A stretch of DNA of 64,000 bases from a virus. Taxonomy: Duplodnaviria > Heunggongvirae > Uroviricota > Caudoviricetes. Positions 5,639 through 42,570 of the stretch are shown here, one piece after another. Position numbers and translations under genes: made by a program. Below the pieces are notes generated by a model. That model ran no database searches. It was given only the letters and a program-made list of their open reading frames with translations, and was not told the DNA's origin. Location: the IMG/VR virus record IMGVR_UViG_3300035208_001992; one strand, 5' to 3'. The first letter of the stretch is position 1, and every line of letters begins with the position of its first letter.

Positions 5639-7282
5639 TTAGCTCGGCAGTGTTGTAACCGGATATGTCTTGTGGCAGGCGGGGCAGTGATATTCCATCT
5701 CGTAGAACGAGTTGAATCTCGTTCGCAATGGAGAGTTGCCGCAACTGCACATGACTGGCAGTTCCAGTTCTTGTCGAACTGCACGCATACGACCGTCAGC
5801 AAGAGCTAAACCAAGGAACCGTGACGAGTCTTCTCTGTTTCCATTCGGCATGAAGAACGTTGCTGCAACACTTGTAGTTGCAATAGCTTTTCCGCGTGTG
5901 AACGAATCCCAGAATGACACGTCATGCTCAGCAACGTACTCGCTGAAGTAAGCGTTCAAAGTTGCAACGCGTTGCTCGTCATCTTGTTCAAGGATGAGAT
6001 CATCATAGAGCTCTGTGAGGCCAGTATTCAATGATGAAGGGAAAGCCGCGTCTAACGCCATGACAACGCTACAGCCACGCGATGACAAGTAGATTCCATG
6101 TCCGTTCTTGACAATGAATTTCTTGCGTAGCAACCAGCTTAATGCTGACCAAACTTCTCGTTCACTCAACAAATTGCGTGCAGCATCAGCGATCTCTCGT
6201 AGCGGAACGAGATTGGCGTTCAACTCAAGCCTCGACGCAACTGGTTGCTCAAGCATTATCGGCTTCGTTGTCTTGATGTCTGCAAGCGGTGCAAAGCTTG
6301 GGTAGTGCTCAATTGCGCCCATGTAACGTAGTGATCCAGCAACGCCTGTAAGTTCTACTGCGTCGATCGGCTCACAACACGCGATGCCTGCTTGCACAAC
6401 GAGCCATTCGTACAACGGACGTGCAGCAAGCTCGTCAACAATCATTCGCGGATTGAAGCTTGATGGTTGCGTTGGCCAGAGATACAAATTGCGCGGCGGG
6501 TTTGGCGCTGCTTTCAAGCCCCAAGATTCGACTAACTTGACGTACTCGTCATAGCACTCGTCAGGCATGCCGATTTCGCCACTCGTGATGACGCCTTGAG
6601 CTTGCAGCTTTTCAACAGCAGCCCATAAGCGCTCCCAAGGTACTGGCGCGCAGATTATTGATGCAGGTTGAGCAATAAGTACAGCGTTGCGCTGCGTTGT
6701 TCTCAACGTATCGATGTTGCGTCCACCAGTAAATTCGCGACCATGCTTGTCTTTGAACGAGTATGGTTTATACGCCTGGCAACTACGATGCAATATGCCA
6801 AGTACATATGCTTGTTGACGCGTCAGCTCGATGCTTGCGCCAACGTTGTACATCTGCTCGAACAATGAATTCAAACGTTGACTCAGCATGCGATCGATGA
6901 CGAAGCGCGTATCTGGTCCTGATTCAAGTTCTGTCGTTTGTGTAGACGCGATCGTTGCAGGCCTGAAGTCGTCCGGAAACAAAAAAGAGACCTGTGCGTT
7001 GACACCGCACAAGGCCTCTTGCATGTCTCGAGCTAAAACCCTACCATAGCTGTTAGCGTCGAACACGCCTACAACTTGCTGGCAGCGTGAAGCGAGTGAC
7101 ACGAGCTTCTCAATCTTAGCTTTTGCAAGCGGCTTGAGCTTTGGCCACGCGTCACTCTTCACTTTTGCTGTTTTAGTGTAACGACCGAACAGGGGAAAAT
7201 CCACTGCAACGACTTGGTCCGCTGGAAACGCTGTGCGAAGACTTGGAATCTTCGAACTAGCGTCAGTGACTACAAGTCGCAT
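5639..7282 (-). CDS. Toprim-domain protein, type IA topoisomerase-like with C-terminal zinc ribbon
   Basis: N-terminus MRLVVTDASSKIPSLRTAF resembles the TopA block LVIVESPAKAKTI. Acidic DANSYGRVLARD Toprim motif. LLRKKFIVKNGHGIYLSSRG resembles the topo IA domain-IV LIxRGYV...LxPTxxG. C-terminal CSCG...HCPACH zinc ribbon. Confidence 0.4.
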   Translation of the reverse strand: MRLVVTDASSKIPSLRTAFPADQVVAVDFPLFGRYTKTAKVKSDAWPKLKPLAKAKIEKLVSLASRCQQVVGVFDANSYGRVLARDMQEALCGVNAQVSFLFPDDFRPATIASTQTTELESGPDTRFVIDRMLSQRLNSLFEQMYNVGASIELTRQQAYVLGILHRSCQAYKPYSFKDKHGREFTGGRNIDTLRTTQRNAVLIAQPASIICAPVPWERLWAAVEKLQAQGVITSGEIGMPDECYDEYVKLVESWGLKAAPNPPRNLYLWPTQPSSFNPRMIVDELAARPLYEWLVVQAGIACCEPIDAVELTGVAGSLRYMGAIEHYPSFAPLADIKTTKPIMLEQPVASRLELNANLVPLREIADAARNLLSEREVWSALSWLLRKKFIVKNGHGIYLSSRGCSVVMALDAAFPSSLNTGLTELYDDLILEQDDEQRVATLNAYFSEYVAEHDVSFWDSFTRGKAIATTSVAATFFMPNGNREDSSRFLGLALADGRMRAVRQELELPVMCSCGNSPLRTRFNSFYEMEYHCPACHKTYPVTTLPS

Positions 7283-7561
7283 TGTTTGACTAGCTCCTGA
7301 TTGTTGCGTCGACTAAACGCGTGATCTCAAGGTCTCCAACAGCTGAAGCAGTCTCTTCTCCAGCTGCGTTGTAAAGCACTAGCGCTGGTACGCGCACCCG
7401 CTTGAACACTTCGCAGATTTCGGGCGTTGCCTTGATCCGCTTTATGCGCCAGTTCTTAGCAAGCCTTGACAACGCATCTTCAACGAGACGCGTTGTCAAG
7501 CCAAGCTCAAGAAAAACAGCGGTTGCAATCCCGTCAGCCAGTGCGGTTGCACCGGCATCCA

Positions 7562-8000
7562 TCAGCGTGACTGACGAGGCGGAGGAGCTGCAGGACGACG
7601 TGCTGCGGCCTGTGGAGGCGGAGCAGCGCGACGAGCAGGAGCAGCAGGCGGAGCCGTCATTGGACGCCTGTTAGCGGCCGGAGGCGGAGCAGCATTGCGG
7701 CGCTGCGGTGGCAGCGGAGGATCGTCGAGGTCTACCTCGAATCCATCACCGTCTTCGGGCTCGAGCGGAAGGTCGCCGCCGTCATCGTCGAGTGGCAGAT
7801 CATCATCATAGCTCGGTGCAGGAGCTGCACGACGGCTTGCAGCAGGAGCTGCACCACGGCGGGCTGGAGTCGGAGGCAGATCATCGTCGAGTCCGAGCTC
7901 GTCATCACCGCCGTCATCGAGAAGCGTCTGGCTGCGTGCTTGTCCACGAGCTGGAGCAGCGGCTGCTCCGCGGCCCGGCTGTGCACGTGCATTGCCTCCG
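7562..8000. repeat. GC-rich low-complexity/repetitive segment (CAGGAGCTGCAC(G/C)ACGGC direct repeats)
   Basis: GCAGGAGCTGCACGACGGC at ~7814 and GCAGGAGCTGCACCACGGC at ~7841. GC content rises sharply relative to the ~50% window average. Confidence 0.6.
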
Positions 8001-8740
8001 CCGATGACACCGCCAGTGCGATCCAGCGTGCCGTCGAGAAGAAGAGGGTACTTCTTCTGCGTCAAGTCGCGGATCATCTCGTCGGCGTCGCCAGGAACGT
8101 ACACGGATGCGAAGTCTGTGGCCTCGGACTTGACGATCTGGTACTGCTCGCGAGTGAGACGAACAGGCTGGCCGTATTCAACGATCCAGGTCTCTTGCCC
8201 GGCGTTAGGCGTGTACGTGACATAGACCGAATAGCCGTCAGCCGGATGCCAGATGTTGCCACCGTAGCGCTTGATGATGCGACCGAGCTTCTTGTTGACG
8301 CCCTTGGGCATCATGAACGGCACGAGAGACTTCGACCACTCACGCAGTGCAGGCTGAGCTGCCGACGGGATGCGGAAGAAGACGTCGACCAATGCGCAAC
8401 GCTCAGGCCAACCAAGGTACTCGGAATAAGTCGAGCAGAATGGGCAGCTTTCGACGTTCGTCTGGCCGTTAGCGTGGTTGACGTCGGGGCACTCGAAGCC
8501 GACCTTTTTGGCCTTGCGAGCATCACCGTGCTTGGCTTTGAGTCCGTCTTGTCCTTCGTTCTTGAAGATCCAAGCGTCTTGGACGTCCAAGTACCACCAG
8601 TGACTCGCGATGTAGTACGGGTCCTTAGTGACGATGCGAACTTCGATTTCCTGCTGTGGGTACTGTGACGGCTGCAGCATCTGAATCTGCTGATACCACT
8701 TGATACGTGCTTGGCCTTGGCCAAATCCATCCCATGACAT
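7562..8740 (-). CDS. Zn-binding protein with long disordered Pro/Ala/Arg/Asp-rich C-terminal tail; possible gp32-like ssDNA-binding protein
   Basis: SD AGGAGAACGAAAT precedes the ATG. The globular N-half carries a His+3Cys cluster (ECPDVNHANGQTNVESCPFC) like the T4 gp32 Zn site, and KKLGRIIKRYGGNIW resembles gp32 FKYRFGKKIWDKI. The C-half (nt 7562-8000) is 70% GC and encodes DDDLPLDDDGG...PPAANRRP...ARRAAPPPQAAARRPAAPPP. Confidence 0.4.
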   Translation of the reverse strand: MSWDGFGQGQARIKWYQQIQMLQPSQYPQQEIEVRIVTKDPYYIASHWWYLDVQDAWIFKNEGQDGLKAKHGDARKAKKVGFECPDVNHANGQTNVESCPFCSTYSEYLGWPERCALVDVFFRIPSAAQPALREWSKSLVPFMMPKGVNKKLGRIIKRYGGNIWHPADGYSVYVTYTPNAGQETWIVEYGQPVRLTREQYQIVKSEATDFASVYVPGDADEMIRDLTQKKYPLLLDGTLDRTGGVIGGGNARAQPGRGAAAAPARGQARSQTLLDDGGDDELGLDDDLPPTPARRGAAPAASRRAAPAPSYDDDLPLDDDGGDLPLEPEDGDGFEVDLDDPPLPPQRRNAAPPPAANRRPMTAPPAAPARRAAPPPQAAARRPAAPPPRQSR

Positions 8741-8880
8741 ATTTCGTTCTCCTATGAGCTATTTCGCCTTTGCCGAATTCACGGACTGGCTTACTGCGCA
8801 TTGTGTTGACCGGCCTTTGTTGTTAGACGAAACCGACCGGTAGTTCCATCTGTTGTCTCTTTACAAAGTTAGTTCAAACA

Positions 8881-10005
8881 TCAATGACTCTCGCATTGAC
8901 AAGCGTATAATTGCCTAGCAGCTTCGCGATCGAGCATCTGTTGATCAATGTCGTTCAGATGCAGGTCGATGTCAAATGCGATTGAGAGCACCAAGCGATC
9001 TCGCGCAGAAAGGCCTTTGCTATACGCCTCAATCTGTTGTCGCGTTTGAGCTACTTCGTTTTCGCGCTCAACGCGACGATCATGGTAGTCTTCGAGGCTT
9101 TCAGCGTTCTCATCTGACTCTTCGATGATCGGCATTGCATTGCGAATGTCGAGTAGATGCGCTGAGTCGTGAAGTAGCTTTGCATCGATTCCCTCGCGCT
9201 TAGCGATCTGCTCGATCTCAAGATGAGAGTTGCGCTCGAGTATGCTACGGTGCTTCCATACGCGGCTCGGCATCTTGATCGTGTTGCTTGCAACTGAGAT
9301 GCCGTTGACCATGTAGCTCTTGATCCACATGTCTGCTATGAACGCGTAAGCTCCAATGCGCGTGTCATATCGGCCAATGGCTAACAGGATCCCGTGGTAG
9401 CCATTCTGGTAATTCTCGAAGAAAGCCCAAGGCTCATTTGCGAATGCGCGTGCAAGTGACACGATTTTGCGCAGATACGGACGAACCATGCGCTCAATGA
9501 TGCCAGAGACTCGATTCAGCTGGTGACGCGCTTCAGCAATCGCTCCGTAGAGACTATGACTGCTCGCATCAAGCTCGAGCTCTATTGCTTCGGCTTTCTT
9601 CCTCGCGGCTGGGTCATCACTTATGCAAAGATCCTGGTAGCACTCGTAGCGCTTCAAGAAACCTTGTATCGCTTTGATCCAGTGACCACGGTGTAAATTT
9701 ATGTCCTTGCGGACAAGATCAAGCCAATTCGGCCCGTTGAGCTGCGGTAGCATTGTATACAGCAAGTGATCACCAACGCTGCTGTGCGATTTGCGCAATT
9801 GCTTGAAGATCGCGCTTGTCGCAAATCGTGCGTACTGATGTCTAACCCAATCAGTGTGGCAATCCAGTGTTCTCAGCGCGCGATAAACGCAATCGTCCAC
9901 GAGACCAACAAGCATCACTGCGTCTTCGTTTCGAAGAGTTGGGTACTTGAAGGCGCTGTACAACTGCGCATTCGATCGATCGTATGCGGCGCGTGCATTA
10001 CGCAT
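8881..10005 (-). CDS. sigma-70 family RNA polymerase sigma factor
   Basis: Region 2-like YQNGYHGILLAIGRYDTRIGAYAFIADMWIKSYM matches DLIQEGNIGLMKAVDKFD...FSTYATWWIRQAI. Region 4-like LSARDRLVLSIAFDI matches LTPREREVL. Confidence 0.7.
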   Translation of the reverse strand: MRNARAAYDRSNAQLYSAFKYPTLRNEDAVMLVGLVDDCVYRALRTLDCHTDWVRHQYARFATSAIFKQLRKSHSSVGDHLLYTMLPQLNGPNWLDLVRKDINLHRGHWIKAIQGFLKRYECYQDLCISDDPAARKKAEAIELELDASSHSLYGAIAEARHQLNRVSGIIERMVRPYLRKIVSLARAFANEPWAFFENYQNGYHGILLAIGRYDTRIGAYAFIADMWIKSYMVNGISVASNTIKMPSRVWKHRSILERNSHLEIEQIAKREGIDAKLLHDSAHLLDIRNAMPIIEESDENAESLEDYHDRRVERENEVAQTRQQIEAYSKGLSARDRLVLSIAFDIDLHLNDIDQQMLDREAARQLYACQCESH

Positions 10006-10654
10006 GTGTTGGGTGCCTCAGCATACGGTGATCGCGCCGGTCAATGCAGCTTTCGTAGTCGTTGCTTGATATGTGAAGCCAATCAGTGTTGTCAATGCAC
10101 CTGTAGCCTTCGGTTCCATGATCGTAGACGGTTGCGGATGCGATCTTGATCCATGCATCATCTTCGGTTGCGAGCCTTCGAATCTCGCGTGCAACTGGAA
10201 CAAGCGAAGGATCGCGTGAGACGAACAAAGCAACATCGAACTCAGCATCATTGTATAGTCGAAGAGCGTCGATCGCCATTGTGACGACCATTTCTTCGTG
10301 ACCATAAACGCGCGTCATCTTTGTTTCACGTATCGAGCCATCTTGATTGAAGATCGGGCACTGACGTGGCGCAGGACGATTCACAAACGCATTGACGTCA
10401 ACGCCATCTCGCTGGTGTGCCGCGATCTTGTTAGCCCAGAACCCGCACCAGTATTCGCTTTGCTCGATTGATGGAGTCATCACGTAAAGACGTGTCGAAG
10501 TAAGAGTCCAACCGTTCTTTTCGCAAAGCAACTTCGAGATCTTCTGTGGCTCGTAGTTCGGATATGATGCGCCAGTGACAGCTTGAGCAGCTCGATGCAA
10601 GGACGTGGAGTCAATGAATGTGATACAGCGTTTCTCAGCTGGCTCGTGCATCAA
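9998..10654 (-). CDS. NYN/LabA-like (PIN-fold) putative nuclease
   Basis: CITFIDSTSL (IAVFIDGENL-like) and DVALFVSRDPSLVPVAREI (DTLVLVSGDGDF-like). Confidence 0.4.
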   Translation of the reverse strand: MMHEPAEKRCITFIDSTSLHRAAQAVTGASYPNYEPQKISKLLCEKNGWTLTSTRLYVMTPSIEQSEYWCGFWANKIAAHQRDGVDVNAFVNRPAPRQCPIFNQDGSIRETKMTRVYGHEEMVVTMAIDALRLYNDAEFDVALFVSRDPSLVPVAREIRRLATEDDAWIKIASATVYDHGTEGYRCIDNTDWLHISSNDYESCIDRRDHRMLRHPTHA

Positions 10655-11844
10655 ATGGCTCCTTTAATTACGCGTGCAATTGTCACAGGCGGATTGCTGC
10701 GTTCACGATAAAAATGATCGATTGACACAAGTTGAATGCTGAACGGAAGCGTCGCGTTGAACGGCGTTAACAATCCGCTTAGTGCTTCATCAATCTTGGT
10801 TCGATCTACAGAGTCAAACTTGACTATATCAATGCTTAAACCAAGGCTAGCACAAATTGAGAAGTGCTCGATATCGTAGGCGTCACTTTCATCTGTCGCA
10901 ATCTCAAGAGTGACGTTGTCGTCCTTGTCTATGACAAATTGTGCATCTTCAGATTTGAAGAGCAACATTCCAATGTTCACAGCGCGCAACAAGTGCTCTG
11001 GCGTGATGTAAGCAGCTAACTCAGAGATACCGATGAGTGAACGACGGCCGCTAAGCATCAAGCTCAGCGAATTGAATGGAGCTCGACGCTCGTTTAGCAA
11101 CATGCGCTCATATACAATAGCAGCGTCAACAAATTTGCGTATGAAGTCGAGCGGGACTTTCGTCTTGCTGTATTGGCGCTGGTTGAATCGCGGGCCAGTC
11201 TTTTCGAATTGCAACTTAATGTCACGATCTTGATCCTTGATCGTGATCATGAAATTGGTGCCTTCACATGTTGCGACAAAATTCGAAAGCTGTCGCGATA
11301 CTGGATGACGCATGCTGTCGGAGAACATCTCTGCTCGAATCCGATCGTACTCTTCTTCATTGATTGGGAATGGAAGCTTCCGGTCAATGCCGCAGTTTCC
11401 GGCGATCGCAGCGCGTGAAAGCACCGAGTCAGCATAGACATAGTCATAGATTGAGATGTGCTCAACGAACAGTTGAGGCCCACCTAAATTGATGTATGTG
11501 AAATTGTCATAAGTGACAGGCTTGCCAAGACTAGCGATGAATTGAACGCGACCAGAGATGTTGCTTTGCTGCTTAACATCAAATGAGTTCGGGATGATCA
11601 ACAATGGCTTCGTGATCAAATCTAGATGTTCGTGAATCCAGTCAAGGATCTTCTCCCAACCGCCAGGCATATGGCCGTCGAGGAATATCGCGTCAGGCAT
11701 CTCGTCAAAGCCTTCGAAATCGACTGTATTCGCACTGTGCACATATGTGACGTCGGGCAGCATCAGTTGCTGATCATGACGGCATTTCGAAAGTACTTCG
11801 TGCGCTGTAAAGAACTGATCGTCAAATCCATGAATGAGCGGCAT
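10651..11844 (-). CDS. hypothetical protein
   Basis: Long ORF. Start trimmed to the internal Met (MPLIHGF) one nt below the stop of the upstream gene; the track ORF extends further 5-prime across the neighbour. Confidence 0.45.
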   Translation of the reverse strand: MPLIHGFDDQFFTAHEVLSKCRHDQQLMLPDVTYVHSANTVDFEGFDEMPDAIFLDGHMPGGWEKILDWIHEHLDLITKPLLIIPNSFDVKQQSNISGRVQFIASLGKPVTYDNFTYINLGGPQLFVEHISIYDYVYADSVLSRAAIAGNCGIDRKLPFPINEEEYDRIRAEMFSDSMRHPVSRQLSNFVATCEGTNFMITIKDQDRDIKLQFEKTGPRFNQRQYSKTKVPLDFIRKFVDAAIVYERMLLNERRAPFNSLSLMLSGRRSLIGISELAAYITPEHLLRAVNIGMLLFKSEDAQFVIDKDDNVTLEIATDESDAYDIEHFSICASLGLSIDIVKFDSVDRTKIDEALSGLLTPFNATLPFSIQLVSIDHFYRERSNPPVTIARVIKGAI

Positions 11845-19020: not shown

Positions 19021-20211
19021 TCATCGAATAGCTGACTTGACTAGCTGCATGAATTCCTTGCAATAGGCACTGTGGTCAAACTCTGTCACCGACTGTGACG
19101 TTCGCACTAAGTCGAGCAACAGCTGTGGAGAACGTTTGACTTGACGAAGTACTTTTGCAACGTGCTCTCGATCAGAGGCGTACAGCCACTTCGACAATGA
19201 CTTGTGATTGCCATACACGCGACGTTGTGGATCCAATGCAGAGTCGATGAGCGTCAGCGTACCAGCAAGCAAACTTTCGTATGTGCGATGCGGTACAACG
19301 TCACTATCATAGTAGATCGGGTCGCCGATCACTACGTGCGCAAGCATTCGTTGATTCTTCGCCAACATGTCGTTGTAAGGGACCATCGGACCGAATGTTG
19401 GAGGTCTTAGTCCTTCATATTCGACATGCTTGTTCTGCACCTTAGTGCTATCGAAGTCCTTGCGAGTTATCTTGCCGAACATCTCGACTGAGATGTCTTT
19501 TGGATAGCCCCAATAGAAGTCGATCATCTTCTGCGCGCGAGATCCATCGCGCATTGTGCCGCCATAGGAAAGATCGACTTCACGATCTCGCAATGGTAGC
19601 ACTGACACGCCGCCTTGCTTGAGAAAGGCATTTGAAAACGCAACGACCTTTTCAAACGCGAACGGCAGGTACTGATGGCCAGGAATGCCGTGCTTCAACT
19701 TCGATACGCGATGACTGTACCATGCCGTGTTGAACGTCTGACAGATGTAGGTCACGTCACGGCGCTTCACGACAATGTCTGACTCGCGATACTTGTTGGC
19801 CCATGACTTATAGCGAATCCAACGCCATGACTGCTGAAACGGAAGTGCTGGGTCACACAGGATGTAGACCAGAGGGCATCGAATCCTGTTGATGATGAAC
19901 ATGTTAGCAGTCTGCTTCTCGAAGTCGTCTTTACCACCGAAGTAATTCAGATTGCCGTTCATGATGATGCAGACGTCGAAATTCATTCGCCGGACTGAAT
20001 CGATGCAGTCGGCCATGTGCAGCCACTTGATGCGCTTCGAGTCGACGGCCTTGTCGCTCTCCAAGATCTTCGTGAAGACCGTGATCTCATTACGTGGATC
20101 TGCTTGGAGAAGCATGTTCATCACAGCATGCGTCTCACCAATCGAGACCTGTACGTTGCGCTCGTCACTTGGTGTGACTCGGCCACCTAATTTCAATAGT
20201 GCAATTTTCAT
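19021..20211 (-). CDS. putative glycosyltransferase (GT-B fold, GT1/GT4-like C-terminal motif)
   Basis: HVVIGDPIYYDSDVVPHRTYESLLAGTLTLID resembles the GT-B E-x7-E acceptor/donor motif. It sits next to the sugar-activation genes. Confidence 0.4.
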   Translation of the reverse strand: MKIALLKLGGRVTPSDERNVQVSIGETHAVMNMLLQADPRNEITVFTKILESDKAVDSKRIKWLHMADCIDSVRRMNFDVCIIMNGNLNYFGGKDDFEKQTANMFIINRIRCPLVYILCDPALPFQQSWRWIRYKSWANKYRESDIVVKRRDVTYICQTFNTAWYSHRVSKLKHGIPGHQYLPFAFEKVVAFSNAFLKQGGVSVLPLRDREVDLSYGGTMRDGSRAQKMIDFYWGYPKDISVEMFGKITRKDFDSTKVQNKHVEYEGLRPPTFGPMVPYNDMLAKNQRMLAHVVIGDPIYYDSDVVPHRTYESLLAGTLTLIDSALDPQRRVYGNHKSLSKWLYASDREHVAKVLRQVKRSPQLLLDLVRTSQSVTEFDHSAYCKEFMQLVKSAIR

Positions 20212-20774
20212 GGTTGCCTCATGACGTAGGTGCTCAACAAGCTGCGATCAAACAGATTGATGAGCAAGTTTTCAACAAGGTTTGTGAATGCTCCTTGATG
20301 CGGTGCAACATAGGCTGTACTCGACATCTTTGCGCGTACCAAACGCTGTAAGCATTCTGGAGCAGCGTCTGTGGTACCAATTGCGCAACAGCCTTGTCCA
20401 GGTTGTCCAACTGAATCAAAGATCTCAGCGTCTGGTAGATCATCGCCAAAGTAGAAAAAGCTGAAGTTAGACTCAGACATGCGATACCGTGTGTTGAGCC
20501 AATTTGCTTTCGACTCGTTGCCGCAATGATAAAGCTCTACGAAGTCCCCTAATTGAAGATCTTCGACGCGCTTTTGCACCACTTGAAAGCCAGGACCACC
20601 GTCGCCTGTGAGGATGATGATCTTGTCAATGATGTCGCGATGCTTCTCTTTGAGTAGCCTCATTGTGATCGAGTCATTGACGTAGAAGTGCTTTTCAGCT
20701 TTGCCAGTGGCATTGTATGTGAAGTACGGCGTCGTAAGAATGCCGTCACAATCTGTCACGATGGTGAAGCTCAT
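20208..20774 (-). CDS. KdsC-family HAD phosphatase (sugar-phosphate phosphatase)
   Basis: MSFTIVTDCDGILTTPYFTYNATGKAEKHFYVNDSITMR matches the KdsC block DVDGVLTDGxxyydxxGxexKxFnvrDG, and ILTGDGG follows. Start moved to the Met that overlaps the upstream stop as ATGA. Confidence 0.6.
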   Translation of the reverse strand: MSFTIVTDCDGILTTPYFTYNATGKAEKHFYVNDSITMRLLKEKHRDIIDKIIILTGDGGPGFQVVQKRVEDLQLGDFVELYHCGNESKANWLNTRYRMSESNFSFFYFGDDLPDAEIFDSVGQPGQGCCAIGTTDAAPECLQRLVRAKMSSTAYVAPHQGAFTNLVENLLINLFDRSLLSTYVMRQP

Positions 20775-22438
20775 TTTGTTCCTTTGTCCGCTAGGTAGAA
20801 CTTGTTTGCGAGAAGCGCACCATGGTGCAATGCTGCAAACGCCTTGATCGGATTGTTTGACGAGTACGCTGCGAGATTCAGCCAAATCAGCGCAACCCAA
20901 CGCTGACGAATGTCAGAGCTAATCACAGCGTTGATCCAAGCAAGTTGGCCATCTGAGAAGCATTCGTATTGCGGCATCTTGAAGCTAACAGACCGACCTT
21001 CAAGCGTATCGAGTTTGAAGAGCTTGGCACTGTTGAACAGATCGTAACCGCTCAAGCTGTACAAGATCTTTGCGTAGTCATAGTCGAAAAGACCCAAGAT
21101 ACCTTGATGATTGCCAAAGTACCCACGTGGGTCGATGAGTGTGATTGGCCCATTGCTGTATTGACCAGTGACTAGAGCATTTGAGAAATTGCAGTCACCG
21201 TGGATTGGCCCGATGCTGCGGTCGAAGTCTGGGCCAGACAATGCACGGTAGTACTCGAAGATCGACTCACCAAGATGCTCTGCAAGCTCGTCGATTGGCG
21301 CTGCTAGCGTCACGCCATTGACTTCGTTCACGTTCGACCTGATGTTGTCAGTGATCGACAGAGCCTTAGTGATACGATGACTGGTCTTGACTGTCGTTTC
21401 TTGACGAATATCTTTGAGCGAGTCCAAGCGTGACTGACGCGCGCTTGTCGATAGATCATGAATTGAGTGGACAGCTTTGATATGCCGTGCAACCAGAGAA
21501 ACGCGATCACGACCTGACGGGTCTGCCATGTTCAATATCGCGTTAGCGACTGTTTCGCCGTGGATGCGCTCCATCATAAACCCGTCACTGTCTGATGCGT
21601 TCAACTTGCACCAGACTTCTGCAACGCGTGGATGAGATCCTTCGCACTGAGCTATTTGCTTGTACCAATTGATCTCGCGCACGCTGAGAACTCGACCAAG
21701 TTCATTCAGTGGTCTCTTGTGCATGATCTTGCGTTCACCAATTGCATTGAATGGACGCGTGACATAGTCAGTCTCAAGTTTTGCTGTGCTTTCCAACTTG
21801 TCAATGTCGCCGACGTCTCTGAGCTCATAGCCCATCTGGCCGATGCGGAACTCGTCAAGCCTTGCGTCGTGACTCAACTGTGTGATCACGTCGACGAAGT
21901 CATCACCGTTGTTGTAGCTGAACGGCTTGAACTCTGGAACGTGATAAATGCCAACAACGTTGCCACAATTGTCGTCAAGCTTTATGACTTCGCCTGTGTT
22001 GTGACGATACCGATATCGGCATGATGCATCGTGCTGTGTGAACACTGTTGGCCTGTTAGATTCGCCAATCTGAATCTTGGATGTGAGTCGCGTGCTGAAA
22101 TAGATGTCACTCCATGTGATCAACACAGGCTTGCCATCCATCATGTCAGCTGCGCCGTGCATCAGTGCATATGCTGTACCAAATGGCTCGTCAACGTATT
22201 CGACAGAAACGTTGACCAATGGCAGATGTTCTGCAAGAAACGCTTTGATCAGCGCGATGAACGAGCTATGGCAAATGATTCTATAGTGCTTTTCGACGCC
22301 GTACGTGTCAATAATGCGTTCAAGAACTGTCTTAGATCCGATGTTCACTAAGACCTTTGGAATGCCATTCACAACCGATCCCATGCGCGTTGCGAGACCG
22401 GCTGCCACAATTATCACGCGATCAGCGTTGTCAATCAT
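20771..22438 (-). CDS. bifunctional sugar-phosphate nucleotidyltransferase (LicC/GlmU-like) / APH-choline-kinase-like kinase
   Basis: N-terminus VIIVAAGLATRMGSVVNGIPKVLVNIGSKTVLERI carries the G-x-G-T-R-(L/M) NTP-transferase signature. The C-terminal half has IHGDCNFSNALV (HGDxxxxN catalytic loop of APH/choline kinases) and a DPR(G) motif. Confidence 0.65.
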   Translation of the reverse strand: MIDNADRVIIVAAGLATRMGSVVNGIPKVLVNIGSKTVLERIIDTYGVEKHYRIICHSSFIALIKAFLAEHLPLVNVSVEYVDEPFGTAYALMHGAADMMDGKPVLITWSDIYFSTRLTSKIQIGESNRPTVFTQHDASCRYRYRHNTGEVIKLDDNCGNVVGIYHVPEFKPFSYNNGDDFVDVITQLSHDARLDEFRIGQMGYELRDVGDIDKLESTAKLETDYVTRPFNAIGERKIMHKRPLNELGRVLSVREINWYKQIAQCEGSHPRVAEVWCKLNASDSDGFMMERIHGETVANAILNMADPSGRDRVSLVARHIKAVHSIHDLSTSARQSRLDSLKDIRQETTVKTSHRITKALSITDNIRSNVNEVNGVTLAAPIDELAEHLGESIFEYYRALSGPDFDRSIGPIHGDCNFSNALVTGQYSNGPITLIDPRGYFGNHQGILGLFDYDYAKILYSLSGYDLFNSAKLFKLDTLEGRSVSFKMPQYECFSDGQLAWINAVISSDIRQRWVALIWLNLAAYSSNNPIKAFAALHHGALLANKFYLADKGTK

Positions 22439-23070
22439 TTCGATTCATCTCCGAGTTCAGAACGAAGCTTCTCGCCAAGAGAGCCATTCGGGTGGTAGCG
22501 CAAAAAGTCGCGAGGTGACCAACCAACGCGATGCGAAAGCACGACAGATATTGTATCTAACGCGCACAGAAGCGTTGTTGTCGATGACGTTGGAGCAAGT
22601 TGATACTCGTCACCTTCAACGACATCGCCGCAATGCAGTACGCGGCTGAAATGATGTTGCTGGTCAAACGAGCTATTGAGATGCAACAGCAATTGATAGA
22701 CTTCTGGCTTAATGCTCTTTATGTGCTGTGCACATGCGAGCAATTCAGCTGTCTTGCCTGACTTGGAAATGTAGATGATCGCGTCGTGCGGTCCAACAAA
22801 TCCGTAGTCGCCATGTGATGCATGAGACACGTTTAGCGCAAGACTCGGTAGTCCAATCGACACCATTGTCTCTGCGATCTTCGCTGCGATGTTAGCATTC
22901 TTGCCAACGCCAGCGATGATGATGCGATGCGAGTAGTCATTGAATCGCGAAAGCTCATCAATCACTTGTTGAAACTCGAGTGTCGTAACCATGCGTTGCA
23001 GATTCGTGATGCCTTGCAATTGGTTGTTGACGCAGTTCACTGCAAGTGCTAGTTCTTCAGCTTTTAGCAT
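22435..23070 (-). CDS. single-domain SIS sugar-phosphate isomerase, KdsD/KpsF (arabinose-5-phosphate isomerase)-like
   Basis: IIIAGVGKNANIAAKIAETMVSIG, HASHGDYGFV, YISKSGKTAELL and LAPTSSTTTLLCALD...FLRYHPNGSLGEKL parallel the KdsD blocks GMGKSGHIGRKMAATFASTG, HGDLGMV, ISNSGES and APTSSTTATL...HPGGALGRKL. No CBS domains. Start set at MLKAEEL behind a strong GGAGGAAAT SD. Confidence 0.65.
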   Translation of the reverse strand: MLKAEELALAVNCVNNQLQGITNLQRMVTTLEFQQVIDELSRFNDYSHRIIIAGVGKNANIAAKIAETMVSIGLPSLALNVSHASHGDYGFVGPHDAIIYISKSGKTAELLACAQHIKSIKPEVYQLLLHLNSSFDQQHHFSRVLHCGDVVEGDEYQLAPTSSTTTLLCALDTISVVLSHRVGWSPRDFLRYHPNGSLGEKLRSELGDESK

Positions 23071-23119: not shown

Positions 23120-23371
23120 TTAGTCTGCACGGTCGGCAGCATCTCCATTGACGCGCGCCTCAAGCAGCTTTACTGTTGGGCCAAATTCTGGCCAATCGCT
23201 CTCAATCACGATCACACCAAGCTCTGACTTGCCGTCATGAGCGCGTCCGACGCTGATCTTGCGCATGATGACAGACAAAGCTTGACAATCAGCAGTGTTC
23301 AAGTACTTCTCTGCATCGCTACCTTTGACAACTACATATCGTGGTTCTAGTTTGAATGCTGGTTTCGCCAT
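23120..23371 (-). CDS. hypothetical protein
   Basis: 83-aa ORF with a CTATTTACAAGG upstream motif. Confidence 0.45.
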   Translation of the reverse strand: MAKPAFKLEPRYVVVKGSDAEKYLNTADCQALSVIMRKISVGRAHDGKSELGVIVIESDWPEFGPTVKLLEARVNGDAADRAD

Positions 23372-23424
23372 TGAGCCCTCTGTGGTTGTCTATTCTATTT
23401 ACAAGGCACGATGTTTACAACGCG

Positions 23425-23811
23425 TTAACATGGGTCTTCAACTGGAGTCAAGCGTCGCACAAGAATCATGAAGCCTATGTCAGGTGACTTGAAATTGATG
23501 CCAGCGTTTCCGTTCGTGCATACACTGTAATCGATTGGTGACTGACCGCTCTTAGTATACAACAGCACGGGATGCTCGAACTTGCGCATGTTGTACAACC
23601 AAGTCTTGCACGGTTCATGCACAAACTGCATTGACGCTACTTGTCCTGGAGCGCACAAGCCCAAGATTTGCGCAAAGCACTCATTGCGCAGTTGCTTGAG
23701 TTCAGCCTTTCCATATTGAGCGTCAGTGCAGTAATGCATCTTGACATCAACCCACCAATCGAGCTGGAACGCCGTGTATGCTAACGCGTTGATCGCTAAA
23801 TTGTCGATCAT
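23425..23811 (-). CDS. hypothetical protein
   Basis: 128-aa ORF. Confidence 0.45.
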   Translation of the reverse strand: MIDNLAINALAYTAFQLDWWVDVKMHYCTDAQYGKAELKQLRNECFAQILGLCAPGQVASMQFVHEPCKTWLYNMRKFEHPVLLYTKSGQSPIDYSVCTNGNAGINFKSPDIGFMILVRRLTPVEDPC

Positions 23812-24035
23812 GATCTTATCATGGTCAATACGTCGATGACCATGCCGTCAGCGTCAGCTGCTAAGTAACCAGCGCCGCCGCTCAGACACTTCATGTTATT
23901 GAACCAGTAGATTTTAGTGCCGGTTGGTTGCTTACTAAGCCAGTCATCTGTGCGCTTGCTACCTGGCTCAATTTCGACTTCTTTCAACTCACGGAAATCT
24001 TCTTTGAGCTCTGCAATATTTGACCCTCGAATCAT
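23808..24035 (-). CDS. hypothetical protein
   Basis: 75-aa ORF with a 4-nt overlap. Confidence 0.4.
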   Translation of the reverse strand: MIRGSNIAELKEDFRELKEVEIEPGSKRTDDWLSKQPTGTKIYWFNNMKCLSGGAGYLAADADGMVIDVLTMIRS

Positions 24036-24274
24036 GATTTGCCTCCAGCTGGATATTCAATGCAGTTCTTGCACCATGCCTTAGTTGCAACTTCTGAATC
24101 TAGCAACTTGATCTGATCACGATCGCGTGACGACATATGTCCATCAGCAAGCCAACGGATCGTGTAGAAATCGTAGCCGTGAATCATGTGATCGATTGCA
24201 ATGATCGCTATGGCATCAAGGTCTGTGTCTTCAACGTCTGCAATGAAGCTACCGATTTTTAGTCTCTCAGTCAT
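24032..24274 (-). CDS. hypothetical protein
   Basis: 80-aa ORF with a 4-nt overlap. Confidence 0.4.
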   Translation of the reverse strand: MTERLKIGSFIADVEDTDLDAIAIIAIDHMIHGYDFYTIRWLADGHMSSRDRDQIKLLDSEVATKAWCKNCIEYPAGGKS

Positions 24275-25548
24275 CCGAAGCGACCTCCCATGATTTGTCC
24301 AGCTGCGCCCATCCTGCTAGCAAGTTCAGTGATGGCCATGCGCAGATTGGTTACCTCACGCACAAGCACAGAGCTTGTATGAAATGGCAGAACTTCAGCT
24401 AACTGGTCAACCCAGTGCGCGTATTCTTGCTTACTCAACTGCTGAGACTTGTCGATCTCATTTTCGCTTTCTTCAAGAATGCGATTGATGATTTCGTCGT
24501 AGCCGATCTCTTTGGCTATTGCTTCAAGCACGCTGTTTTCGACGCTGAATCGATTTTGGAGATTATCGGTACCCCATGACTTGCATCGCTGATAATCGAG
24601 CGGCGACATGTATATCAACGCTGTAAACGTAGTTGCAGGCTTCACAGATTCGTCATAAATTGATGACGTCGACTTGCACATGCGAGTCTTCAAATTTGCG
24701 AGACTTTGCGTAGCTTGGACATACCCAGGCCAACGCAATCCTGAATTGAACGTTGCTTTTGATTGTGATTTATTGCTATAGTCTCCAGCATAGTCATTGC
24801 TGTTCGAATTTTGCTGATCTGCTATGATAGTTAGCAGTGAGTGCAGCACGAACGAGAGCATACTAGCATGATCTGCATAGGCAAAGTCAAATGATTCAAT
24901 CTCTTCAAGCCATGTTTTGATATGACGGCGTTGAGCTATGTAGTAAGCAACATAGCCGCTGTCATCAGTCTCCGTCGGCATGATCGAGATGAGATATTCG
25001 TCGATGACTGCTCGAGATTTTGCCACGTACTTTTCCATGTACTTGCGCATTGCTGCGTAGATCTCAGAAACGATTTGCTTTGTTACGCTGGTCGGATGCA
25101 CGTAGCGACGCGTTATCCCAACATCGTACTTTAGAGTAATGAACTGATAAGAATCACCTGGCAGACACTTCAATGAAGTGCTGTTGCTATGAGACAACGA
25201 CAATGGCGCGCATCCGTCGCTGTTGTTAGACGCGGCGAACATCTGATCTATGAATGACAATTCAGGAGTTTCGTACTCGTAAACTGGTACTGCAGCGCAT
25301 GACTGCTGGATATTGTTGCTAAGGCAAGAAACAGCAGCCTCGGTCAGCAGTGACTCGTAAAAGTGATAATGACTGTCACTGCTTGAATCATGATAGAGGC
25401 GTTCGCCAAAGATAGCTGGACGGCTCATTTTCTTTTGTACAGCACGCACGATGTCACGAACAACAAGTGCGTTGATCGTTGCTTGGCCTTGTGTAGTCAT
25501 GAATGATTGCATTGATCTCTCCTTCAGCCGCCAAAGCGGCTTATACAA
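24271..25548 (-). CDS. hypothetical protein
   Basis: 425-aa ORF; no motif recognised. Confidence 0.5.
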   Translation of the reverse strand: MYKPLWRLKERSMQSFMTTQGQATINALVVRDIVRAVQKKMSRPAIFGERLYHDSSSDSHYHFYESLLTEAAVSCLSNNIQQSCAAVPVYEYETPELSFIDQMFAASNNSDGCAPLSLSHSNSTSLKCLPGDSYQFITLKYDVGITRRYVHPTSVTKQIVSEIYAAMRKYMEKYVAKSRAVIDEYLISIMPTETDDSGYVAYYIAQRRHIKTWLEEIESFDFAYADHASMLSFVLHSLLTIIADQQNSNSNDYAGDYSNKSQSKATFNSGLRWPGYVQATQSLANLKTRMCKSTSSIYDESVKPATTFTALIYMSPLDYQRCKSWGTDNLQNRFSVENSVLEAIAKEIGYDEIINRILEESENEIDKSQQLSKQEYAHWVDQLAEVLPFHTSSVLVREVTNLRMAITELASRMGAAGQIMGGRFG

Positions 25549-26249
25549 GCGTGTGATCTGAAGTAGCTGTTCTCAGCGTTACTTGCTGCTTTCAATTCTT
25601 CTGGCATACGCTGAGGAAGATGACAGTATTTGGACTGCGACCGATGAATCATGAAGTTGCATTCTGCGCTGCAGCAGCGTGAGTCATTGCGCATTACTGA
25701 AATCGCGTCACGCGTCACAGCATTGACGCATAGCACTGTTTTGTGATAGTCAACTACGAACTGCGCGATGTTTTCAAGCATCACGGTTATTGCATAGTGA
25801 TTCTCTGTAGTTGAACCTACCGTGCCAACAAATTGCACTACGAGCCTGTGAAGATCGCGCGCCAGTTTAGTTGCGTCATTGATGTTCTGCGCTAGCATCA
25901 ACTGCTCGGTCATTGTTTCGATCTTGCTCTGTAGACGCTTGACGCGAAGCATGACAAACGTCAAAGCAGCAGTAATGAACAACGTAAGCACAATTGAGAT
26001 CACGTTAGTTAGCAGAATGCTGTAGCCATGAGCAACGAATCTGAAGCCTACGCTAAAAATCGTCAATGCGAACAATGCCACGATTGACGCGTGCAGCAAT
26101 CTGACGTTGTACAAGCCACGAGCATGCTGCAAGCGCGGTGTCATAAGTGACTTGACTGAACGCAAACTGGATACACAATCTGTCACATATATTGCTCTTA
26201 TGATCGATGTATTTAGGTCGTCATTACTTGTATTCATGCTCATATTCAA
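25524..26249 (-). CDS. 2-TM membrane protein with cytoplasmic domain
   Basis: Two hydrophobic helices (LLHASIVALFALTIFSVGF and ILLTNVISIVLTLFITAALTFVML) followed by a ~140-aa soluble domain. Confidence 0.5.
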   Translation of the reverse strand: MNMSMNTSNDDLNTSIIRAIYVTDCVSSLRSVKSLMTPRLQHARGLYNVRLLHASIVALFALTIFSVGFRFVAHGYSILLTNVISIVLTLFITAALTFVMLRVKRLQSKIETMTEQLMLAQNINDATKLARDLHRLVVQFVGTVGSTTENHYAITVMLENIAQFVVDYHKTVLCVNAVTRDAISVMRNDSRCCSAECNFMIHRSQSKYCHLPQRMPEELKAASNAENSYFRSHACISRFGG

Positions 26250-26809
26250 CCAATCTTCCGTTTGACAATAAGCCGTTGAAATTCTGGAGTGTAGCCGAAG
26301 CCATGCTGACGGACAGAAAAGAAACTGGTCAAGTGCTTGATCACGTACAAGTGACGCGAGCTTATGATCAATGATGCTTCTTCAGTCCCGGTACTTGCTT
26401 TTGCCTGTTCTTGCAACGAACTAAGTACGTCAATCACTTCGTGCGGCGTGCCTGATACGTCAAGACGATCTTTGATTGAGCCGATCAGCGACGAAACGTC
26501 GAGATAGTCACTACCGATTTCCTGCTTCAACTTTGACGCTATATAGCGCACAACGAAGTGATCAATTGCAATCGCGATCATGAACGCATATGCAGTAAGC
26601 TGCATTGCATAGCCATGCGTCTTCGTGAGTGACATGCCACTTATCAATGCTGTGGCAATGCTGCCTAAGCCAAGGCTAAAATATGTGATGATTATGCAAA
26701 TTGCGCGAATGGTGCAGCCACGATGCGTCATGGAGAAAATGCCTGTCGACATCACATCATAGAACGACGAAGCGGTCAGATCTTTGCGTTGCTCAAGCTT
26801 GTAATTCAT
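26246..26809 (-). CDS. 2-TM membrane protein with cytoplasmic domain (same architecture as 25524..26249)
   Basis: Helices TIRAICIIITYFSLGLGSIATALI and AMQLTAYAFMIAIAI followed by a soluble domain. Confidence 0.5.
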   Translation of the reverse strand: MNYKLEQRKDLTASSFYDVMSTGIFSMTHRGCTIRAICIIITYFSLGLGSIATALISGMSLTKTHGYAMQLTAYAFMIAIAIDHFVVRYIASKLKQEIGSDYLDVSSLIGSIKDRLDVSGTPHEVIDVLSSLQEQAKASTGTEEASLIISSRHLYVIKHLTSFFSVRQHGFGYTPEFQRLIVKRKIG

Positions 26810-27483
26810 GCGACTGCTTTCCCTTCCAAAATAGTGTCAATCACAATCCCACAATATTCAGGCGATTCAAGCATCACTCTTAAGCGTTTGACACGCTCAG
26901 TCTCTTTAGGACTGTCCATGATGCCTTTGCGCTGTTCAGCTTGCCAGATCACGTGCAGCAACGCATTCGACTTCTCTTTGCCGCCGCATGTTAGCAATTT
27001 CACTAAAAGTGCTTTGTAGTCTGGCTCGATTCCAGCAGTTGTATTTCCTGGAGTCAGCTGCACAACACCAGGCGACACGAGGTCGAAGAAGACATCAGCG
27101 CTTGACAGCATATATTCGTCAATGAGCTCGACGACTCCGTTGTTGGTGCCAACAACGCGATATGACAGATTAGGAATCAGAACGCCGTGTGAGTCGGTAC
27201 TAAATTGCGCAGTGACGAAATGGTCTTGAAAGAACCGATGACCTCTGTCACCAATGTTTGTGAACTCAAGCATAGCGTTAGCGCCAGAAACGACTTCCTT
27301 CCTGTAAGGAGCGTCCTCAGCGTCGAGCTTTGCCAAGTAAGCTGGATCGACACGTTGGATGATGTTTGTCGCAATGCGTTTACGAGTCGTGATCATTGTG
27401 TGGCTCCAAGTAGTTTGAGTGCTTTGTCCAAAGCTGATGACAAGCAGTCGCCAAGACCACTGCGTGAACAGATACGTATACAA
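26806..27483 (-). CDS. hypothetical protein
   Basis: 225-aa ORF. Confidence 0.45.
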   Translation of the reverse strand: MYTYLFTQWSWRLLVISFGQSTQTTWSHTMITTRKRIATNIIQRVDPAYLAKLDAEDAPYRKEVVSGANAMLEFTNIGDRGHRFFQDHFVTAQFSTDSHGVLIPNLSYRVVGTNNGVVELIDEYMLSSADVFFDLVSPGVVQLTPGNTTAGIEPDYKALLVKLLTCGGKEKSNALLHVIWQAEQRKGIMDSPKETERVKRLRVMLESPEYCGIVIDTILEGKAVA

Positions 27484-27860
27484 TGACTGTCCAAATCAGA
27501 ATCATGCGTGTAGTGCACGGCCTCATCGTCAATGATCAGGTAGTGCTTCACGTCTGGATGCGTATCTAACCAAGCGCGAGTTGCTTTACCACGATGTATG
27601 ATCTCAGGATCGAGCGTGCCGATGATGCATACATGAGATCGCGAATCGCTTCTTAGCAAAAGCTGTTTGATCGCTTCAAGCGGCATAGTGAAACGAGCAG
27701 CAGAACATATCACAATCTGCGCGTTGCTTGACTCAGCCAATTCATCAAGCACAGCTATGCTCTTTGGATCGAGCTCAGGCATGCTATGGATTCGAGTTGA
27801 CAAGTAGCTTATCGGATCTAGCACACCGCCGATATCGAGAAATATGACAGGTTGTGACAT
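27393..27860 (-). CDS. hypothetical protein, weak HAD-like features
   Basis: VIFLDIGGVL and LIIDDEAV; motif I is not canonical (DIGG rather than DxDG). Confidence 0.35.
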   Translation of the reverse strand: MSQPVIFLDIGGVLDPISYLSTRIHSMPELDPKSIAVLDELAESSNAQIVICSAARFTMPLEAIKQLLLRSDSRSHVCIIGTLDPEIIHRGKATRAWLDTHPDVKHYLIIDDEAVHYTHDSDLDSHCIRICSRSGLGDCLSSALDKALKLLGATQ

Positions 27861-27874
27861 GATCTGCCTCCTAG

Positions 27875-37133: not shown

Positions 37134-37680
37134 ATCATCATCAAGATTGCGATCTAGGTTGTTCGCATCGGTGATGAAGTTCTTGAGATTGCGCAGATAG
37201 TCACGTAGCTTGGCGTTGTCTATGTCGTTTCCTTATCTGTAAATGTTGCCGAACCAAGTTACCACATTCAGCTGTCCTGTTTCGCGGCTGTTAAGGCCCA
37301 GGAGTTTTGCTCGTGTCTCTGAATCGCCTTTGAGACTCAAGCTTGAAACGTGCGGCGATCACGTTAGATTACGAGTGGCGCTGCTGCGTTTTGCAACAAG
37401 CTTATGTCTTGGACGTATGGCCGTGAGGCCAAGGTAAAGTATCCCGCAAGGGACCACTCAATAGAAGTGCGCGCTCCAAGCACTGGAACAAGAACGCGCT
37501 GCTAGTTCATCCTGCGATCAGCAATGCAGGATCAATGCCTTGGCAAGGCATGACTGCATCTACTGGCAACGTTGAGTCTCACCTGCTGAAACCCAACTGA
37601 ATGTATGCATACTAACGTAAGAACTGGCAGTGTTGTCTCACGTACGTAAACTAGGTTTGCTCCGCTTACCGAGCGGCATG

Positions 37681-38001: not shown

Positions 38002-38207
38002 GAGAACTCCGTTGAAGATTTTGGTTGACCAAGTCGCCACGTCAACCTGCTGGATGTTACTGGCGTCTCTATGCTTTATCGGTATGCCCCACACGCCGAC
38101 AAGCATTTCCAGGTTTTCAAGAGCCTGCTAAGCAAGCTCTTGCGTTCGCTGCGCAACAACGAATGCCCCAACGACACCCAACCCCAACGCAGCGAAACAT
38201 TCCCTGA

Positions 38208-38685: not shown

Positions 38686-38750
38686 GTTGTGTGCCTTATC
38701 AGCACAAGATCAATTTACAAAGTTTGCATTGTTTACACTAGATTAACGCG

Positions 38751-42565: not shown

Positions 42566-42570
42566 GGTAA

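Follow-up and report, generated by a model that had tools for sequence, protein, structure and literature searches.

An AfhE-family kinase–nucleotidyltransferase fusion in a jumbo phage and its probable role in pentose activation for DNA glycosylation

A single minus-strand gene at positions 20771–22438 of a 64,000-nucleotide stretch of the Caudoviricetes record IMGVR_UViG_3300035208_001992 (the whole stretch is referred to here as the window) encodes a protein that fuses a sugar-1-phosphate nucleotidyltransferase to a small-molecule kinase. Judged by its sequence, this fusion is a member of the AfhE family, which was recognised in 2018 (RB69 ORF53_52c) and characterised in 2025–2026 (AfhE); the window protein is a divergent member and not a new type of protein. 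It is probably the central enzyme of a coupled gene cassette that makes a nucleotide-activated pentose, most likely UDP-D-arabinofuranose, with which the phage would glycosylate its own DNA. What is modestly new is the setting, namely a jumbo phage together with a phosphatase of the KdsC type and a transferase of the T4 DNA beta-glucosyltransferase (beta-GT) type.

The gene is one unbroken open reading frame (ORF) of 555 codons that starts with ATG, and the plus-strand reading of the same region is riddled with stops. The nucleotidyltransferase domain (residues 1–221; 21776–22438, minus strand) was assigned a GT-A/RmlA-MurU fold from Pfam, profile and Foldseek matches and contains the motifs G14-x-x-T-R18, P27-K28, W109-S-D111 and a D-x-G around residues 208–210; the segments AAGLATRMGS and GIPKVLV occupy residues 12–21 and 25–31. 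The protein-kinase-like small-molecule kinase domain (residues 228–555 plus the stop codon; 20771–21757, minus strand) contains K241 (the ATP lysine), E255, the catalytic loop H413-G-D415, N420 and the Mg-binding D436 within IDPRGYF, with the catalytic-loop region, IHGDCNFSNALV, spanning residues 412–423. In single-sequence Pfam searches NTP_transf_3 narrowly cleared its cutoff of 27 with 27.8 bits and APH, at 17.4 bits, fell short of its cutoff of 23.2, while the NCBIfam GlmU, HddC and MurU models matched only the first ~125 residues, far under their cutoffs. Because these single-sequence domain calls were weak, the kinase assignment needed independent testing.

Structure prediction provided such a test. 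An AlphaFold2 model of the full fusion, built from a 56-sequence alignment, had a predicted local distance difference test score (pLDDT) of 93.2 and a predicted template modelling score of 0.92, and its confidence fell at residues ~221–230, marking the domain boundary. In Foldseek searches of the PDB the N-terminal half matched mostly RmlA (E=3.8e-11) and MurU (template modelling score 0.70–0.73), and a family profile searched against PDB sequences matched HddC (1e-15) and LicC (2.4e-11) with this domain; the PDB copy searched held no AfhE-type structure. The kinase domain modelled by itself (residues 222–555, pLDDT 92.7) had matches only among structures of APH, of choline/ethanolamine kinase and of methylthioribose kinase, all with probability 1.00. 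Since the matches were confined to this kinase group, the HGD loop is placed by the model in a protein-kinase-like fold, consistent with the proposal of an earlier note on this DNA that it is the catalytic loop of an APH/choline/hexosamine-type kinase. That note had read the gene, from its letters, as one polypeptide with an N-terminal nucleotidyltransferase and a C-terminal kinase of the APH/choline-kinase type, and the ORF, the AlphaFold models and the fold searches all agree with it; its domain-boundary check returned a boundary at ~221–230 with both folds recovered on high-confidence models. The sugar-1-phosphate nucleotidyltransferase signature that it had recognised near the N-terminus is likewise supported by NTP_transf_3, by the HddC and LicC profile matches and by the RmlA/MurU folds.

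Homologues of the fusion align along nearly its entire length. PHROG 4098, which has no assigned function in that database, matches residues 7–545 (E=1.2e-83), and tblastn recovered full-length relatives, ~30% identical, from 368 phage records, most of them belonging to T4-like phages whose hosts include Escherichia, Acinetobacter, Klebsiella, Vibrio and Serratia. An exhaustive phmmer search of 1.84 billion cluster representatives returned 328 clusters at E<=1e-10, 67 of them at E<=1e-30, and nearly all of the matches span ~residue 7 to ~547. Across the 56-homologue alignment the invariant or nearly invariant positions are G14, R18, P27-K28, W109 and D111 in the N-terminal half and K241, E255, H413-G414-D415, N420 and I435-D436-P-R-G-Y in the kinase half. 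Five further basic residues of the kinase domain (R228, K351, R355, R438 and K457) are also invariant, a pattern that is consistent with an anionic phosphosugar substrate.

The assignment to the AfhE family follows from an end-to-end alignment with the orthologue of Serratia phage 4S, annotated there as 'GlmU' (BLASTP, 31% identity, E=2e-62, fusion residues 9–555). Two adjacent RB69 ORFs, ORF053c and ORF052c, both match the fusion; re-sequencing of this region gave one 561-residue gene, ORF53_52c, which a single-base sequencing error had earlier split, and which was proposed to act in UDP-arabinose synthesis (Thomas et al. 2018, PMC6024577). The RB69 RefSeq record NC_004928.1 still has the homologue as RB69p053 plus RB69p052 (28094–29780; 6010–7696 of our extracted locus L001). 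In the summary given in PMC13326640, which cites He et al. 2026 and Mahler et al., AfhE of Escherichia phage HY126 is described as acting both as a kinase on D-arabinose-5-phosphate and as a UDP-D-arabinose pyrophosphorylase: the kinase converts arabinofuranose-5-phosphate (Araf5P) to arabinose-1,5-bisphosphate (Araf1,5P), and between the two AfhE steps the HAD phosphatase AfhF converts the bisphosphate to arabinose-1-phosphate. Measured arabinose-5-phosphate 1-kinase and UTP:arabinose-1-phosphate uridylyltransferase activities are cited in that summary for HY126 AfhE only (PMC13326640), and arabinose-5-phosphate, one of the candidate substrates listed in the earlier note, is the substrate reported there for the family. 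The orthologue of Shewanella phage Thanatos, TH1_060, is essential (PMC12838424).

Compared with the AfhE orthologues of HY126, RB69 (gp52:53), Acinetobacter phage DLP3 (gp82), Thanatos (TH1_060) and Serratia phage 4S, the window protein has the same domain order and a similar length (555 versus ~561 residues), the same invariant catalytic residues, an arabinose-5-phosphate isomerase gene upstream and a phosphatase gene directly downstream. It differs by ~70% sequence divergence and by its place in a small clade with three metagenomic proteins (P0002–P0004), and its cassette differs in belonging to a jumbo phage, in having a phosphatase of the KdsC type in place of the AfhF mini-HAD and a transferase of the T4-beta-GT type in place of a GT4-type one, and in lacking an adjacent 5-hydroxy-dCMP synthase.

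The cassette consists of four minus-strand genes, for an arabinose-5-phosphate isomerase, the fusion, a HAD phosphatase and a DNA glycosyltransferase, and each shares an ATGA stop/start overlap with the next, three overlaps in all. When the surroundings of the cassette were scanned for promoters and terminators, sites were no commoner than in shuffled sequence, and the operon boundaries are therefore drawn from the ATGA overlaps only. The SIS-domain isomerase (22435–23070, minus strand, 211 residues) starts at an ATG at 23070 preceded by GGAGG, although its mechanical ORF runs further, to a TTG at 23163, and its stop overlaps the fusion ATG. It matches PHROG 5670 'arabinose 5-phosphate isomerase' (E=6.6e-64) and the NCBIfam models KpsF/GutQ (1.2e-27) and KdsD (6.4e-25), and is 41% identical to RB69 gp55 and 53% identical to the Serratia phage 4S isomerase. 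Because of this 41–53% identity to the arabinose-5-phosphate isomerases of Straboviridae, the substrate that enters the route is most likely shared with those phages.

The HAD-IIIA phosphatase of the KdsC/YrbI type (20208–20774, minus strand, 188 residues) starts MSFTIVTDCDGILT, at a true start that was masked in the mechanical ORF list, and carries the LTGDG, K and FGDDLPD motifs. Its ATG overlaps the fusion stop, so that it is translationally coupled directly downstream of the fusion gene, and its own stop overlaps the ATG of the transferase. Its best NCBIfam matches are KDN-9-phosphate phosphatase (3.5e-10) and KdsC (2.7e-8), and in the PDB it matches KdsC (1j8d, 8e-6) in an alignment that includes each of the four HAD motifs. 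No homologue of AfhF, a mini-HAD of ~128 residues of the RB69 gp51 type, was found in the window, and the window phosphatase is unlike the AfhF of RB69 or 4S. The KdsC-type enzyme is probably the arabinose-1,5-bisphosphate 5-phosphatase of the cassette, a proposed functional but non-orthologous analogue of AfhF.

The last gene (19021–20211, minus strand, 396 residues) encodes a homologue of T4 beta-GT according to Pfam (T4-Gluco-transf, 3.1e-12), PHROG (7922, 1.4e-39) and the PDB (1BGT, 7.4e-28 over residues 43–366). Identical residues occupy the positions aligned with T4 D100, R191, R195, R269 and E272, which we take to be the catalytic base and the UDP contacts. That these UDP-binding and catalytic residues are kept supports a UDP-sugar as the donor and DNA as the acceptor. 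The transferase shows no similarity to the Straboviridae arabinosyltransferases of the GT4/GT-B type (RB69 gp46:47 or gp3 type).

From homology or analogy we infer what the substrates are, in which order the steps follow, that the nucleotide is UTP and that the sugar is destined for DNA. The SIS isomerase would convert host ribulose-5-phosphate to D-arabinose-5-phosphate, which the kinase domain would phosphorylate with ATP at C1 to give arabinose-1,5-bisphosphate. The KdsC-type HAD would take off the 5-phosphate to leave arabinose-1-phosphate; the natural substrates of KdsC-type HADs likewise bear a terminal primary phosphate. The nucleotidyltransferase domain would then form UDP-arabinose from arabinose-1-phosphate and UTP, and the T4 beta-GT homologue would move the sugar onto a hydroxylated pyrimidine in DNA, with 5-hydroxymethylcytosine slightly favoured.

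A precedent for this scheme is the established ADP-/GDP-heptose pathway, in which the SIS isomerase GmhA is followed by an anomeric kinase (HldE or HddA) that turns a sugar with a terminal phosphate into a bisphosphate, the HAD phosphatase GmhB, which takes off the terminal phosphate, and a nucleotidyltransferase (HldE or HddC), with the HldE kinase and transferase fused and the phosphatase separate. Among proteins of solved structure, HddC is also the one closest in sequence to the N-terminal domain of the fusion (1e-15). The two routes differ in the sugar (C5 versus C7) and in the kinase, which is protein-kinase-like here but of the ribokinase (HldE) or GHMP (HddA) type there; the HldE transferase, moreover, has a cytidylyltransferase fold and the domain order is reversed. 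An identification with HldE itself was rejected, as the fusion has no PfkB or CTP_transf_like matches and the folds differ; the likeness to HldE is confined to the logic of the pathway.

The earlier note had instead likened the fusion to LicA plus LicC or NahK plus GlmU. These systems, including LicCA, do pair a GT-A-type nucleotidyltransferase with an APH/choline-kinase-fold kinase that makes the phospho-intermediate for nucleotidylation, but LicC/LicA and NahK/GlmU, which act on choline or N-acetylhexosamines, need no phosphatase in between. A better analogy is the heptose pathway (GmhA, HldE kinase, GmhB, HldE transferase), because the characterised homologue needs a HAD phosphatase between the steps and in the window a HAD phosphatase gene is coupled directly downstream. 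The note had further supposed that the fusion channels a freshly phosphorylated sugar straight to NDP-activation. Direct channelling is unlikely because a stand-alone phosphatase would act between the kinase and transferase steps: as summarised in PMC13326640, the AfhE kinase yields a bisphosphate on which the separate AfhF must act first. The fusion more probably serves stoichiometry and co-inheritance than substrate tunnelling. GlmU itself was rejected as an identity, since the NCBIfam GlmU models cover only residues 1–125 (16–33 bits against cutoffs of 292–725), the C-terminal half has a kinase fold and the left-handed beta-helix acetyltransferase domain of GlmU is absent. LicCA was likewise rejected: Pfam Choline_kinase does not match the fusion and is sub-threshold in one relative, and the neighbouring genes encode pentose-phosphate enzymes.

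RB69 and Acinetobacter phage DLP3 DNA contains mono- to tri-arabinosylated 5-hydroxycytosine (Lee et al. 2026, PMC13326640), and Asn at the position of E. coli ThyA residue 169 is the signature of the 5-hydroxy-dCMP synthase (PMC13326640). No ThyA-family gene was detected in the 64-kb window, about a fifth of the genome, by tblastn with the RB69 and 4S proteins or by phmmer and a 3-sequence hidden Markov model (HMM) on six-frame ORFs of >=50 residues (no match with E below ~0.5), nor among 30 window ORFs scanned with Pfam. Pfam and PHROG searches of ~40 other window ORFs also gave no TET/JBP, DNA methyltransferase, dCTPase, KdsA/KdsB or other sugar enzyme.

The nearest phage relatives of the transferase are those of Ralstonia jumbo phage RsoM2USA (344 kb, 37% identity) and of an uncultured 462-kb phage (LR756500, 34%), and in both genomes the beta-GT-like gene lies near a ThyA homologue, at a distance of 5.4 kb in RsoM2USA (2569–3405 and 7992–9122 of locus L006) and 2.3 kb in the 462-kb phage (7698–8582 and 10001–11110 of L007). 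With numbering read off the E. coli ThyA sequence, the ThyA homologues of these two phages have Asp169 and Asp177 (MRSQD/MRSND), the hydroxymethylase pattern, and those of RB69, 4S and a viral locus, L012, have Asn169. A 5-hydroxymethylcytosine acceptor is therefore mildly, if indirectly, favoured for the beta-GT-type transferase. No pentose-activation module was found in the 11–21 kb around the two beta-GT-like genes, and RsoM2USA and LR756500 probably glycosylate 5-hydroxymethylcytosine DNA with a host sugar nucleotide. In both records the ThyA and beta-GT-like genes are labelled 'hypothetical' or carry no annotation. On L012, a 216.6-kb contig, the ThyA homologue (10088–10984) has MRSNN with Asn169 and lies two genes downstream of a fusion 32% identical to that of the window; this signature leads to the prediction of 5-hydroxycytosine DNA outside Straboviridae.

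The T4 system itself offers an instructive comparison. The window transferase is a true homologue of T4 beta-GT with the catalytic and UDP-binding residues kept, but T4 draws on host UDP-glucose and has no sugar-activation genes, whereas the window transferase is tied to a pentose-activation module. We suggest, tentatively and at well below even odds, that the clade of the window and P0002–P0004/L003 joins a UDP-arabinose factory to a T4-beta-GT-type enzyme, yielding a pentosylated base undemonstrated in any phage. Such a base may be, for example, beta-arabinosyl-5-hydroxymethylcytosine, which was formerly proposed for RB69 and later revised to arabinosyl-5-hydroxycytosine. Hints in this direction are that T4 beta-GT, the homologue of the transferase, works on 5-hydroxymethylcytosine and that the ThyA homologues beside the beta-GT-like genes of RsoM2USA and the 462-kb phage have Asp169 and not Asn169.

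Several points weigh against the reading of the cassette as a source of UDP-arabinose for DNA glycosylation. The fusion is only ~30% identical to characterised family members, its activity is assigned by homology, and the AfhE biochemistry is taken second-hand from the summary in PMC13326640. TH1_060 was inactive on xylose-1-phosphate in vitro (PMC12838424), a result that fits arabinose specificity but is not positive evidence for it. As the phosphatase and transferase are non-orthologous to those of the characterised system, the sugar, anomer or acceptor could differ, and because searches of the 64-kb window turned up no ThyA-family, TET or other base-hydroxylating gene, it is solely homology to T4 beta-GT that points to DNA as the target. 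A sugar or nucleotide other than arabinose and UTP, through retuned specificity in the jumbo clade towards, for example, a different pentose or ketose phosphate or, in view of the KdsD-like and KdsC-like neighbours, a sugar resembling Kdo, would be compatible with the low identity, with a phosphatase of the Kdo-8-phosphate/KDN-9-phosphate phosphatase type, with the homology of the transferase to a glucosyltransferase and with the GTP, CTP, dTTP or UTP used by the nearest solved nucleotidyltransferase relatives. We nevertheless regard it as unlikely, given the 41–53% identity of the isomerase to Straboviridae arabinose-5-phosphate isomerases and the retention of the UDP-contacting residues of T4 beta-GT. 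A CMP-Kdo route in particular was rejected: no KdsA/KdsB homologue occurs among the window ORFs scanned, and CMP-Kdo requires no kinase.

A different order of steps is about equally improbable. The HAD would then strip arabinose-5-phosphate to arabinose, the kinase would phosphorylate C1 and the transferase would make NDP-arabinose without a bisphosphate; yet the bisphosphate route has a precedent in the heptose pathway, the five extra invariant Arg/Lys residues (R228, K351, R355, R438 and K457) fit a phosphosugar substrate, and AfhE is reported, in the summary cited above, to convert Araf5P to Araf1,5P with AfhF acting on the bisphosphate (PMC13326640). The chance is slightly smaller still that the target is something other than DNA, such as a virion protein or a host envelope glycan, as is presumably so for cellular and giant-virus homologues. 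The module lies beside GT4/GT2 genes in cells and also occurs in giant-virus metagenome-assembled genomes (MAGs), where DNA modification is unexpected, and no base-modifying enzyme was found in the window; against this, the coupled transferase is specifically homologous to T4 DNA beta-glucosyltransferase (1BGT, 7.4e-28), and related beta-GT-like genes in two jumbo phages lie 2–5 kb from ThyA homologues of the dCMP-hydroxymethylase type. A LicC-LicA-type choline/ethanolamine kinase and CTP:phosphocholine cytidylyltransferase is scarcely credible: the Choline_kinase HMM stays under threshold in the fusion and its relatives, next to it are conserved genes for a pentose-phosphate isomerase and for a phosphatase acting on sugar phosphates, and the characterised homologues work on arabinose phosphates according to the summary in PMC13326640.

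The window belongs to a jumbo phage of ~306 kb outside Straboviridae. A protein identical to the fusion (P0001) lies on a 305,891-bp contig, of which the window is about a fifth. Megablast of 8 kb around the fusion gene against 50,697 phage records gave no match, indicating no close sequenced relative, and the clamp loader, UvsX-like and gp46-like genes of the window are at most ~30% identical to known sequences. The window has a GC content of ~49% and, in jumbo-phage-like fashion, a cluster of 16 minus-strand tRNA genes among small ORFs at 34969–47897 (His, Pro, Leu x2, Asn, Tyr, Ala, Glu x2, Thr, Met, Ile, Lys, Gln and Ser x2). The only close relatives of the fusion (43–46% identity) are P0002–P0004, all metagenomic, which in a rough neighbour-joining tree form with the window protein their own branch beside other viral clades and apart from a cellular-type group of ~500 residues.

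The same order of isomerase, fusion, HAD and beta-GT genes recurs on a 200,689-bp contig (L003) that encodes one of P0002–P0004, where the HAD counterpart is 54% identical to the window phosphatase and an M16-peptidase-like gene lies ahead of the cassette. In the window ~4.7 kb of minus-strand sequence (23163–27875) separates the isomerase from the M16-peptidase-like gene (27875–29062), with ORFs of 83, 128, 75, 80, 425, 241, 187, 225 and 155 residues that have no Pfam or PHROG match; because the peptidase gene of L003 directly abuts the isomerase, this segment looks like an insertion beside the cassette. Elsewhere on the minus strand, a 281-residue protein with a metallo-beta-lactamase fold (50341–51186) matches Pfam Anti-Pycsar_Apyc1 (51.4 bits versus 50, E=1.4e-13) and is, from this match, a candidate cyclic-nucleotide-degrading anti-defence protein. 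Genes for an SbcD/gp47-like metallophosphoesterase and an SbcC/gp46-like ATPase (2899–3984 and 58307–60916, minus strand), usual neighbours in T4-like phages, lie 54 kb apart. A class-I S-adenosylmethionine-dependent methyltransferase gene (60962–61810, minus strand; Methyltransf_25, 3.4e-9) adjoins the clamp-loader gene, and its product matched no DNA-methyltransferase-specific family.

Comparison of 80 viral loci revealed several architectures. The Straboviridae type (26 loci) comprises isomerase, AfhE, AfhF, ThyA and a GT4-type transferase; a jumbo group (L012 and L019) combines a KdsC-like HAD and a GT4-type transferase with a ThyA homologue that bears the Asn169 signature; in giant-virus MAGs and others an HAD_2 protein adjoins or is fused to the AfhE-like fusion; and the window/L003 type is a further one. 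Among IMG/VR giant-virus MAG contigs, the fusion, usually with HAD_2 adjoining, was seen on L028, L030, L034, L039, L051–L053, L055, L057, L058 and others. Single-chain fusions of 890–1011 residues, some on contigs of up to 409 kb, combine HAD_2, SIS, nucleotidyltransferase and kinase domains, and the five examined (P0016, P0022, P0029, P0035 and P0036) have 910–950 residues. As Rosetta-stone fusions that unite the activities of pentose activation, they speak for the proposed pathway. Such a four-activity chain is encoded by L004 (10001–12793 of the locus, 409-kb contig), where a photolyase-like gene (DPRP/FAD_binding_7) follows it, and by L005.

A scan of cellular genomes with a 12-sequence alignment found at least 533 bacterial and archaeal loci, including Thermoplasmata, Micrarchaeota, Trichodesmium erythraeum IMS101 (L110), Lachnospiraceae, Treponema, Burkholderiales and others. 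Among the best 80 of these (L094–L173), from which the details are drawn, a SIS isomerase gene lies nearby in 57 and an ORF of ~125 residues (WFIDIDGVIF...TARK...INDK) directly downstream in 67; by hhalign this ORF is a homologue of AfhF (probability 94%, E=1.2e-7), and the cellular modules are often near GT4/GT2 glycosyltransferases. A Thermoplasmata MAG contig (L008/L009) carries the triad in two copies with transposases on the flanks. Since the isomerase, fusion and mini-HAD occur together across bacteria and archaea with an AfhF-like ORF, the triad appears to be an old cellular module that phages probably borrowed, and, judged from these homologies, the window lineage has swapped out the phosphatase. 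The distribution suggests that the triad is a widespread, apparently uncharacterised cellular route to NDP-pentose.

For the flagged ORF by itself, the result is chiefly the correct annotation of a 'hypothetical protein'. Its window copy carries the AfhE-type pentose-activation module past T4-like phages into jumbo phages, and the pathway emerges as modular, since the same kinase/nucleotidyltransferase core is partnered by HAD phosphatases of at least three unrelated kinds and by DNA glycosyltransferases from two unrelated families, and some megaphages have the pathway fused into one polypeptide of ~900 residues. If the pairing with a T4-beta-GT-type enzyme holds true, the phosphatase step would have passed to a KdsC-type HAD, a third independent way of carrying it out beside those of the AfhF mini-HAD and HAD_2 types. 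Glycosylation of phage DNA protects against restriction enzymes and CRISPR-Cas and exposes it to type IV systems, and the sugars and bases chosen by phages therefore matter for the therapeutic use of phages, for their engineering and for the enzyme toolbox.

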